Shown: positions 42,001-45,000 of the stretch, piece after piece | How positions within the stretch are numbered: position 1 is the first letter of the stretch | Layout of the letters: the number at the start of each line of letters is the position of its first letter | Origin: an uncultured bacterium | GTDB lineage: Bacteria; Babelota; Babeliae; Babelales; RVW-14 | Assembly: GCA_963759805.1 (NCBI GenBank) | Contig: CAVXAT010000005.1 | Coordinates: 32,001 to 96,000, forward strand | Direction: 5' to 3' | DNA length: 64,000 bases | Position numbers: made by a program

Positions 42001-45000
42001 GAAGACCTCGAATCCATTGAATTAGAAAAAGCATTTCCTTATGTTATTGTTTGGCTAAAAAGATACAAAAATGAGGAGGGGAAGTTACAAAAAAATAGTA
42101 CCACCATACCTTTTGAAAACCAAATCAATCTAAAACATGTAACCAAATCATTAAAATATAATCTAATTGCTTTTGTAGTTCAAAGCGGCAGTACCGGCGA
42201 AGGCCACTACTGGGCTTACGGAAAGGATAAAGATGATAAATGGTGGCGATATAATGACCCAAACGTAACCGACGCTTCGATAGAAGACGATGACAAAAAA
42301 AGCATTAAGGATATCTTCGAAACTGGCCTAGATCGCAATAAAGCAACCCCTTACGTTCTCTTCTATGAACTTGAAGAACCACTTAGTCTACTCAAGTCAT
42401 CATTGCAGAAACTTAAAACAAAAGTGGAAATGTTGCAAGAGAAGTTGGGAACGCTGAGGGGTAAATTGGGATAGAAAATAAAAAATTAAGTGGAGGCGAT
42501 GGGATTTGAACCCATGTCCGTAATACCCAGCTCTTCGAGCACTACATGCTTAGTTCTTATTTATACTTCTACTATGCTGCAAGAACACAGGACAAGTAAA
42601 AGCCGGTTCAGTATACAATCCGGATACACTACCAAAAAGTCTTTCCAGAAGGTTCTATCTGATTATACGTGTATGCTAGGCTGATAGACACGTCCGCATA
42701 CAAGCCATAGATGCCCTACTTAATTAAGCAGCTGCAACTAAAGGACTACTCACATTGGAATAGTTTGCATTTATGTTTTTGAACGTTGATTAACGAGTTC
42801 CATTCAAAACTCGGCATGCTCTCAAAGCTCTTGACACTACGTCGAAGCCAACACGCCCCCAAATTTTTCAAAGATCAAAAGATTATAATAAATATAAGTA
42901 TAATTATATAAGTATATTTTCTATGTGTCAACAATAGCCCAAATTCAAAAAACAGGTCTTATCGGCTTAAAACCCACCTTTTAACCCCAAAAAACAGAGT
43001 AAATTAGACTTTGCAGACTGATTATGTAAACTATCTGTAATTAATACAAATTTTATAACTCTAAAAACTAAGGTTTTTTTATTAAGGGTCTTTTATGAGT
43101 AAGAAAAGTACAATTTTCACCCTAGGCCTTGCCACATTCACAATGTTTTTTGGGGCAGGCAACGTCGTATTCCCACTCAGTCTTGGCAGAGATATGGGGA
43201 ATATGGTTTTTTATGCAATCCTAGGCTTTTTTGCAACGGCAATTTTTGTTCCGCTACTTGGCCTAATTTCAGTAATGCTTTTTGAAGGCGATTATAAAAA
43301 ATTCTTATCTACGATGGGGACAATTCCTGCAAGCTTGATCGCTCTTGTCTGCATGATTTTACTAGGCCCATTCGGATGCATAGCTCGCTGCATCGTTCTT
43401 TCATACTCTGCAATTCAGTGGCATCTTCCAAATATATCACTGTTTACCTACAGCTTGATCGCATCTATTTTTGTGTTTTTGGTAACACAGAATAAAGGCA
43501 GAATCGTCAATCTGCTTGGCAAATATCTTGGACCTGTAAAATTAACATTACTGCTTTCGGTTATAGCAGTCGGACTTATTTCTCCATTTATGATGGAGCC
43601 AACAACATTCACTGCCGGACAGAGTTTTATGCGCGGTTTTAATGATGGTTACTTCACAATGGATCTGATCGGAGCACTATTTTTCTCAATGTTAATTTAC
43701 ACCGCATTGAAAAAAATGTTGTCTGAAGAAGGGAAGACGTCAACAAAAGATTTAATCGTTTATGGTATAAAATCAAGTCTTATCGGTGGTGGGTTGCTCG
43801 GAATCGTCTACCTTGGCTTTTGTACAATTTCCGCAATGTACGGCCCACACATCCATGGAATTGGAAGAGATCAAATCTTAAGTGCTTTGACAACCAAAAT
43901 CCTTGGCCATGGTGCCGGAATTCTTGCCAACGCCACCGTTGCAATCACATGCTTAACAACAGCAATTGCATTAACAACGGTCTTTGCCGATTACCTGGCA
44001 CATGAACTTACAAAGTCTAAAATTCGTTACCCTTATGCACTTTTAATAACAACAGTTATCACATTTGCAATGTCCAATCTCGGTTTTGAGGGAATTATGA
44101 ATTTTGTTGAACCGATAATTGTTGTGCTTTATCCTGCTCTTATAGTTTTATGCTTAGCAAATATTGCCAATAAACTCTTTGGTTTTAAATACATTAAGCT
44201 TGTTGTCTTTTCATCTTTGATTGCAAGTTTGGTTCTCAATTATGGACAAGCAATTGCAGGCCTGATGATCAAATGAACTTTAAATAGCTTAATTCTTAAA
44301 TTTTGACAGGCAGGGCGCTAAAAATGCTCTGCCTGTTTTATTATAAGTTACGGCAAAAACCATCAATTTATATAAACCATGTACTATTTTAAGTTGATTT
44401 TAATAAATTTAATAAAATTAACAGAATTTAATTAAAGAAAAATTTAATTTAAAGAGAGGGTACTCTATGAAGTTTGTTAAGGCTATTTTATTAATATTTT
44501 TAATTACAACATCTTTATCTCCGATGAAAAAGCCTGGTAAAAGCGTCATGCCAACGAAAAAGCCTGGTAAAATTGTCGTACCTGTGAAAAAGCCTAAAAG
44601 TGTCGCGCCAATAAAAAAACCTAAAAGTGTCGCGCCTGTAAAAAAACCTAAAAGTGTTGTGCCTGTAAAAAAACCTAAAAGTGAATTGCAAGTTAAATTG
44701 GAACAACTAAAATCACCCTTGGCCGAATTAAGAACCAAGTTAATGAAATTGCAGGAAAAGCTTGAGTCTTTGAGAATATTTCTAGACCCGGTAACCGAAG
44801 AAAATATCTGGGATAAAATAAAAAACTTGATACAAAACCAAAATGGTAATGAATTTAATCTTAAGCCAGAAATAATCGATGAATGGATGTTGCTTGACAA
44901 TCAACTCGGTACATTAAAAACTGATATGACTAAAATCAAAAATGATATTGTAATCGACAATGAATATTTTAAAGGAATTAGATTAGCAGATTATGCACCT

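Follow-up and report, generated by a model that had tools for sequence, protein, structure and literature searches.

The feature described here lies in a window of 64,000 nucleotides (G000:C5:32001-96000) from a Candidatus Babeliales genome of 1.50 Mb that is 89% complete. At 44686..44784 on the forward strand, exactly 33 codons (LQVKL...LRIFL) encode a leucine-heptad tag, detected by both a pattern count and a profile, which forms residues 74-106 of a 739-amino-acid signal-peptide protein (44467..46686, +). Counting tag positions from 0 within the 33 residues, as we do throughout, the leucines fall at offsets 0, 4, 7, 11, 14, 18, 21, 25, 28 and 32, that is, at heptad positions d and a. Between the signal peptide and the tag, a tandem repeat of 27-30 bp (44524..44683, +) encodes a Lys/Pro/Val linker with six KKP units that is absent from the homologue P0060. 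The C-terminal part of the protein was labelled HECT in the initial annotation, and this holds as a lead only: HECT clusters of the ESM Atlas were indeed matched (28 of 30 matches at 0.91), but there was no Pfam match, the AlphaFold2 model built from a three-sequence alignment reached a pLDDT of just 49.8 (with the tag helical at low confidence), and Foldseek returned nothing for that model at E 0.001. HECT identity is thus a prediction, and the part is called HECT-like below. Since the gene is missing between the brnQ-like gene and pheT in close relatives (loci L039 and L040), it seems to be a recent insertion at that position.

Five of the 13 tags found in this genome are located within the window. 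A second tag (42370..42468, +) forms the extreme C-terminus of a signal-peptide USP deubiquitinase (40816..42474, +; Pfam UCH, E 4e-29), and a third (18279..18377, -) immediately follows the signal peptide of a cPLA2-like protein of 1204 amino acids with a PLA2_B domain (14847..18461, -; Pfam E 6e-22). The fourth (2031..2129, +) is C-terminal in an ORF of 879 codons that begins before the window and occupies window positions 6-2138; this protein had been called protease-like, and a match to the Pfam family RickCE does exist but lies below the cut-off (E 0.006). The fifth (52847..52945, -) is at the C-terminus of an 861-amino-acid signal-peptide protein without Pfam match (52832..55417, -), a member of a family whose six copies in this genome are intact in two cases and split or cut in four. 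Three broken copies of the family (C3:1765-4107, C9:26-694 and C15:10406-12640) are 95-99% identical where they overlap, apparently through recent duplication, decay or an assembly artefact.

Several untagged genes of the window are also of note. One protein combines ankyrin repeats with a eukaryote-type cyclin domain (12268-13350, -; Pfam Cyclin, E 3e-15), and another, signal-peptide-like, carries RING and IBR domains and looks like an RBR-type ubiquitin ligase (5575-6237, -). The stretches 2164-3400, 32261-35069 and 50351-51103 hold apparently split genes: a PALP enzyme and NamZ are each divided between two ORFs, and an anticodon-binding domain lacks its catalytic domain. An IS-type integrase lies at 7981-8901, and a PemK/MazF toxin beside an AAA-ATPase with a PD-(D/E)XK nuclease at 20337-22547.

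Applied to the 14,034 six-frame ORFs of the genome that are 40 amino acids or longer, a plain pattern count singled out 13 with 9-10 Leu at the ten offsets and few other hydrophobic residues, separated by a clean gap from the remainder, in which the high-Leu ORFs were short Leu-rich junk frames and not tags. A profile made from the 11 distinct copies recovered the identical 13 ORFs, and no 14th carrier appeared in this genome up to E 10. The 13 carriers, which hold those 11 distinct tags (three being identical), group into 8 cargo clusters, in agreement with the initial annotation; also reproduced were its counts for one cargo family that supplies 6 of the 13 carrier ORFs, 4 of which are split or contig-edge gene pieces. 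In the 11 tags nine of the ten Leu positions never vary; an alignment in which two TTG codons are taken as M shows eight, the number first reported. Overall, Leu occupies 108 of 110 a/d positions, while K and R occupy 70 of 110 e/g positions and D and E only 2, which is the combination of hydrophobic a/d with basic e/g residues of K-coil-type sequences.

All nine carriers with an intact N-terminus were signal-peptide-like according to a crude predictor written for this analysis. By the same predictor the tag is present on just 9 of the 335 signal-peptide-like ORFs of the genome, and because of this a general secretion signal is ruled out. As the initial annotation had held for housekeeping proteins, none of the 325 core genes, defined by an identity of 60% or more to the G015 orthologue, carries the tag. 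Moreover, tag-less USP, cPLA2 and dikinase paralogues coexist with the tagged ones, which makes the tag optional.

When a 35-sequence profile was run against 1.84 billion proteins (E 0.001), a library through which alone viruses were covered, it returned 56 matches. Three of these were unrelated tandem-repeat coils, one of them from shrimp, and not tags; the other 53 looked like tags, almost all of them C-terminal or placed behind a signal peptide, and their similarity and style suggest that they come from Babeliales. The pooled set comprised 135 carriers after removal of duplicates, two ordinary coils, a locus whose bases were partly withheld and three false matches. In this pool the tag is C-terminal in 80 carriers, follows the signal peptide in 36 and lies elsewhere in 19, and the placement first noted in a single genome therefore extends to 116 of the 135. 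The carriers represent no more than 74 cargo clusters, and the true number may be lower, since loci cut at 1.5 kb split clusters. Their Pfam families include USP, ankyrin, PPDK-type dikinase, macro, WH2, dual-specificity phosphatase, metallo-phosphatase, EEP and MavL-like domains, and 54 of the 76 carriers scanned had no Pfam family at all.

In the scanned carriers no Pfam family fell on the tag itself, with one sub-threshold match to the Sec2p coil. A PDB sequence search with the tag gave good matches solely to designed coils, several of them the basic halves of acid-base pairs, and no natural structure of note. PDB searches with the 739-amino-acid protein and with alignment A3 yielded weak coil matches only, among them the bZIP protein MafG (E 0.82), and the tag alone had no usable match in the ESM Atlas. 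A literature search, whose coverage left out subscription journals and supplements (possible sites of domain lists), found no description of the tag, and the terms zipper, heptad and amphipathic were absent among the matches listed for Babelota. We rate the tag as a real and undescribed module.

Conservation within the 33 residues is not simply periodic. In 59 copies that had not been used as seeds, one per cargo cluster, K or R stands at position 15 in 56 and at position 17 in 56, but at position 10 in only 8 (Ser in 37) and at position 22 in 17; these copies were found by the same profile, which inflates conservation but does not explain the contrast between heptads, and the set contains clusters split by truncated loci and related genomes that are not independent. 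Residue 16 is the centre of a rough symmetry in this pattern (p 0.02). Length is fixed, with heptads continuing past the 33 residues in just 9 and 7 of the 135 carriers, and aromatic residues are nearly absent. The median net charge is +5, the hydrophobic moment peaks at 101-102 degrees, and the Leu face is flanked by Lys with acidic or small residues on the opposite side.

With own-genome or family profiles, 6-27 copies were found in 11 of 35 family genomes (6 genera), and the congeners hold 15-27 copies each, which corrects an earlier figure of 14-19. The count of 11 positive genomes, given before, stands for profiles of this kind only: a broader profile that included divergent versions gave at least 6 matches in 13 of the 35, and G012 holds one further copy. 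G015, previously scored negative, carries a divergent version on 6 ORFs, found by reading about 1.46 Mb and comparing only the ends of secreted proteins. One of these sites follows a signal peptide and the rest are C-termini, of a USP, of two ankyrin proteins and of two others; the version aligns to the tags of the window genome at 94% probability, and the tagged USP, which adjoins mscS, is the positional orthologue of the window USP. A version similar to that of G015 occurs in G010 in 11 copies on 10 proteins, where a secreted 2061-codon protein (L381, G010:C64) has two tandem tags after its signal peptide. In G012 the single copy, acidic at its centre, follows the USP. Genomes called negative thus hold divergent versions at the same cargo positions, which is the new observation here.

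In 216 genomes of other families, the broader profile gave 9 matches in G048 and 3 each in G094 and G054, counts that are partly seeded. Short versions occur at post-signal or C-terminal sites in families f11, f15 and f21, contrary to the initial statement that other families had none. Weak matches in G021, G034 and G020, and most single matches in other families, were ordinary long coils and were not counted; the weak matches in G018, G024, G026, G014 and G005 are putative. The G021 region C4:483000-501500 (L359, L362 and L367) encodes giant coiled-coil proteins rich in Gln, Thr and Leu (1100-3160 codons), which are not tags. USP domains are present in 28 of the 35 family genomes and in none of 14 control genomes, and G022 has up to 14 USP matches, including a 3751-codon ORF that holds several. 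In the loci read from genera g3, g4, g9, g12, g13, g15, g16 and g19, no USP has a tail tag, and real absences of the tag among the family genera therefore probably exist; further divergent versions may exist beyond those found. On a PheT tree of 30 of the 35 family genomes the tag-rich genera do not form one clade, and G015 is sister to the genus of the window genome. The module is older than first described, with divergent genus-specific versions and a shorter form in other Babeliales families.

The 739-amino-acid protein has two database homologues, which illustrate how the tag is combined with its cargo. P0060 has the order signal peptide, tag, cargo. P0061 is a USP-tag-HECT-like fusion with the same cargo as the window protein, and its tag sits at the junction, where the tail tag of the USP and the head tag of the HECT-like protein would coincide. 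P0005 and P0029 share with otherwise unrelated carriers just the signal peptide and the tag. The earlier description as a shuffled module, here one limited to secreted proteins that look host-directed, is supported by terminal placement, tag-less paralogues, the junction fusion and the lack of matches outside this type of lineage in the searches above; its epithet lineage-specific no longer applies.

Tag sequence tracks the genus and not the cargo. For 74 of the 106 genus-labelled tags, the closest tag on any other cargo belonged to the same genus, compared with 26.9 +/- 5.0 (maximum 47) in 2,000 label shuffles, in a set in which kin genomes are not independent. Mean similarity was 1.81 for same genus and different cargo versus 1.54 for same cargo and different genus. 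G001, G022 and G028 keep Leu14, Lys15, Lys17 and Leu18 almost throughout. The second version has Val, Ile, Thr or Ala at 14 and Ile, Val or Cys at 18 across unrelated cargo (10 and 11 of 11 tags in G010, 4 and 4 of 5 in G015), and it has lost the central Lys, with Lys17 in 1 of 11 and 0 of 5, respectively. At the DNA level, tags of unrelated carriers are about 40-58% identical, and the window genome shows no excess of shared synonymous codons (135 of 434; nulls 149 and 139), so that a DNA-repeat origin was rejected. None of five other genomes passed the codon-usage null, and two of the five had a marginal excess against a within-tag shuffle null (p 0.03). As synonymous codons are not shared beyond chance, selection at the protein level is the simpler cause of the concerted versions, although old within-genome copying whose DNA trace has since been erased could also have produced them.

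Any explanation has to account for a fixed 33-residue frame, an aliphatic a/d core, basic e/g flanks, placement at termini or junctions of dozens of unrelated cargo proteins, optional use among paralogues and a concerted sequence throughout a genus. Our preferred reading, to which we give a probability of about 0.45, is that the tag is a strand that docks its carriers, through a coiled coil, onto a single cognate protein. It would fold as a helix and pair through its Leu face with one partner protein per lineage, and this docking would sort or gather a chosen subset of Sec-exported, host-directed proteins. The partner would most probably be encoded by the bacterium, as a component of export, translocation or a scaffold, and less probably by the host. 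Terminal reassortment would spread the tag and at times fuse two cargo genes through it. The tags of one genome shift together across unrelated enzymes and therefore most likely answer to one surface, and such concerted change favours a specific protein partner. Any of the roles first offered (sorting, secretion or oligomerisation) may apply, sorting-type docking being part of the reading we prefer; a general secretion signal is excluded.

A partner in the form of an acidic, all-Leu coil was not evident in the window genome (89% complete) or among the orthologues shared with G015. The best candidate, the gene at C10:32222, belongs to the core genes, with 34 of the 35 family genomes carrying it, and does not discriminate. 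The region C10:32222-35534 encodes three adjacent signal-peptide proteins consisting of long coiled coils. A neighbourhood search across genera found no untagged family beyond three genera, and those families were housekeeping, mobile or cargo-like.

The genome also has a type II secretion operon, gspC-gspD-gspL-gspM-gspD, the names resting on Pfam secretin matches and a reading of the neighbours. Its loci (C21:1-3585 and C13:12096-17728 in the window genome, C6:122717-131500 in G015) are conserved across the family; two large secretins of about 810-1120 codons with long low-complexity ends surround the gspL/gspM-like genes, and a third secretin adjoins a secretion ATPase. GspC of the window genome contains what we take to be a PDZ-like domain. 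Of the 35 family genomes, 34 have GspC and all have GspD, also in genera where no tag was detected, and a comparison of low power between their sequences did not group G010 with G015 or follow the tag version in general. Type II components, with gspD in two copies, belong to the core gene set of the phylum (PMC4776705), and 44% of the proteins of Chromulinavorax have signal peptides (PMC6561590).

The docking strand could also be read more narrowly, as a portable and position-independent signal for a dedicated Babeliales route of export or vacuole crossing whose receptor co-evolves with the genus. The two-secretin type II system or another carrier would then recognize the signal at either terminus or at a junction inside the protein. 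We regard this as somewhat unlikely. Pairing of the tags among themselves, as parallel dimers or trimers that build mixed enzyme complexes, is likewise possible but doubtful. It would account for concerted genus versions without a further gene, since the tags within a genome must stay compatible, and it agrees with the failure to find a gene for a partner. It also fits the aliphatic residues at both a and d, PDB matches that include the all-Leu designed coil-Ser, and the G010 protein with tandem tags. In a parallel register the residues opposite the two invariant Lys would be small and neutral (with repulsion in 16 and 28 of the 135), whereas in an antiparallel register they would collide in 127-129 of the 135. 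However, attraction is nearly absent, with only 13 attractive pairs among the 540 g-e pairs of the parallel register as against 165 repulsive ones, and the 95% fixation of Lys15 and Lys17 in six genera is left unexplained by self-pairing. A complex prediction with three copies of the window tag and alignment A2 (score 0.09, mark 0.42) counts neither way.

An unlikely alternative, drawn by analogy with the ExoS/YopE domains, is that the tag anchors its cargo as a basic amphipathic helix on an anionic membrane, such as the vacuole face, the mitochondrion or outer-membrane vesicles. Membrane localisation domains are described at either terminus of and within unrelated effectors in the accessible part of PMC3417404, and a relative sheds apparent outer-membrane vesicles in the food vacuole while a mitochondrion wraps it, according to that of PMC6561590. 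The Lys-flanked Leu face, the median charge and the hydrophobic moment would suit such a role, as would a phospholipase, phosphatases and ubiquitin enzymes among the cargo. A lipid surface, however, exerts no obvious force for position-specific, genome-wide changes of the core; several G001 copies have almost no net charge, the G012 copy is acidic at its centre, and the scarcity of aromatics and the fixed length also speak against it. Finally, the tag might be a low-complexity coil without shared function, recurrent or a mere recombination handle for domain shuffling. Its low complexity, its position at the fusion junction of P0061, its patchy spread on the PheT tree and the tag-less paralogues are all compatible with this, and the initial annotation had allowed for partial convergence of such coils. 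Convergence is unlikely because the profile drew just 3 unrelated coils from 1.84 billion proteins and because non-periodic positions are conserved. Together with the sharp score gap in the window genome, the fixed length, the terminal placement, and a DNA identity between unrelated carriers lower than ongoing recombination would leave, this makes a functionless coil very improbable.

Babeliales are widespread parasites of protists with hundreds of secreted proteins, and the cultured members live inside the host cell. We know of no described way by which they route secreted proteins to host targets. The tag would mark a subset of the secreted proteins as a functional class, could serve as an effector finder, given that most carriers lack a Pfam family, and offers a 33-residue bait for pull-down, with the genus-wide versions as built-in specificity controls. 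Should the type II machine or a translocator read it, it would provide a simple handle on substrate choice; if tags pair mutually, it would represent a modular code, occurring in nature, by which effector complexes of several enzymes assemble.

Some known elements share single traits with the tag. The RPE type of Rickettsia is a coding DNA repeat inserted into genes, which the tag does not resemble in that its copies are not conserved at the DNA level. The bZIP zipper has Leu at d only, attractive g-e pairs and a basic DNA-binding region; with four to five heptads and Leu at d the tag is similar, but it was set apart by Leu also at a, the 13 attractive g-e pairs of 540, the lack of a family-wide basic DNA-binding region and its secreted cargo. 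The MIM1 motif of ESCRT-III, (D/E)xxLxxRLxxL(K/R), is echoed by LxxKLxxLK units in 93 of the 135 tags, and mimicry was rejected since the strict motif occurs in none of the 135 and the Arg form in 10. The tag shares Leu at a/d and Lys at e/g with the designed coils GCN4 acid-base BASE (1kd8), CC-Hex KgEb (6q5r), sc-apCC3 (9rgy) and coil-Ser (1cos). Unlike them it is natural and its repeat is impure, with Ser at 10, a fixed Lys at both 15 and 17 and a small residue at 22, and unlike the acid-base pairs it has no acidic partner strand found in the window genome. No sequence match linked the tag to ExoS/YopE or any other described domain in Pfam, the PDB or the ESM Atlas.

In the way it would work, the tag can be compared with two further kinds of module. 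Type II signals are read by GspC, as for the Ig fold of VesB and the PDZ domain of EpsC in the available text of PMC12369372, and are similar in that the cargo is Sec-exported, recognition is species-specific and the module can be grafted; correspondingly, all 9 intact carriers are signal-peptide-like in a genome with a type II system. The signals described there are folded beta domains, whereas the tag is a single predicted helix found on about 3% of signal-peptide ORFs, and the type II system is also present in genera without a detected tag. The membrane localisation domain of ExoS, ExoT and YopE, a Leu-rich helix of about 22 amino acids, and the four-helix 4HBM, as far as the accessible part of PMC3417404 describes them, resemble the tag in being placed at the termini of or within unrelated effectors, the tag being likewise short, Leu-rich and basic. 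The tag differs from both in its strict 3-4 heptad spacing over 33 residues, in the Sec signal peptides of its carriers and in its genus-wide concerted versions.
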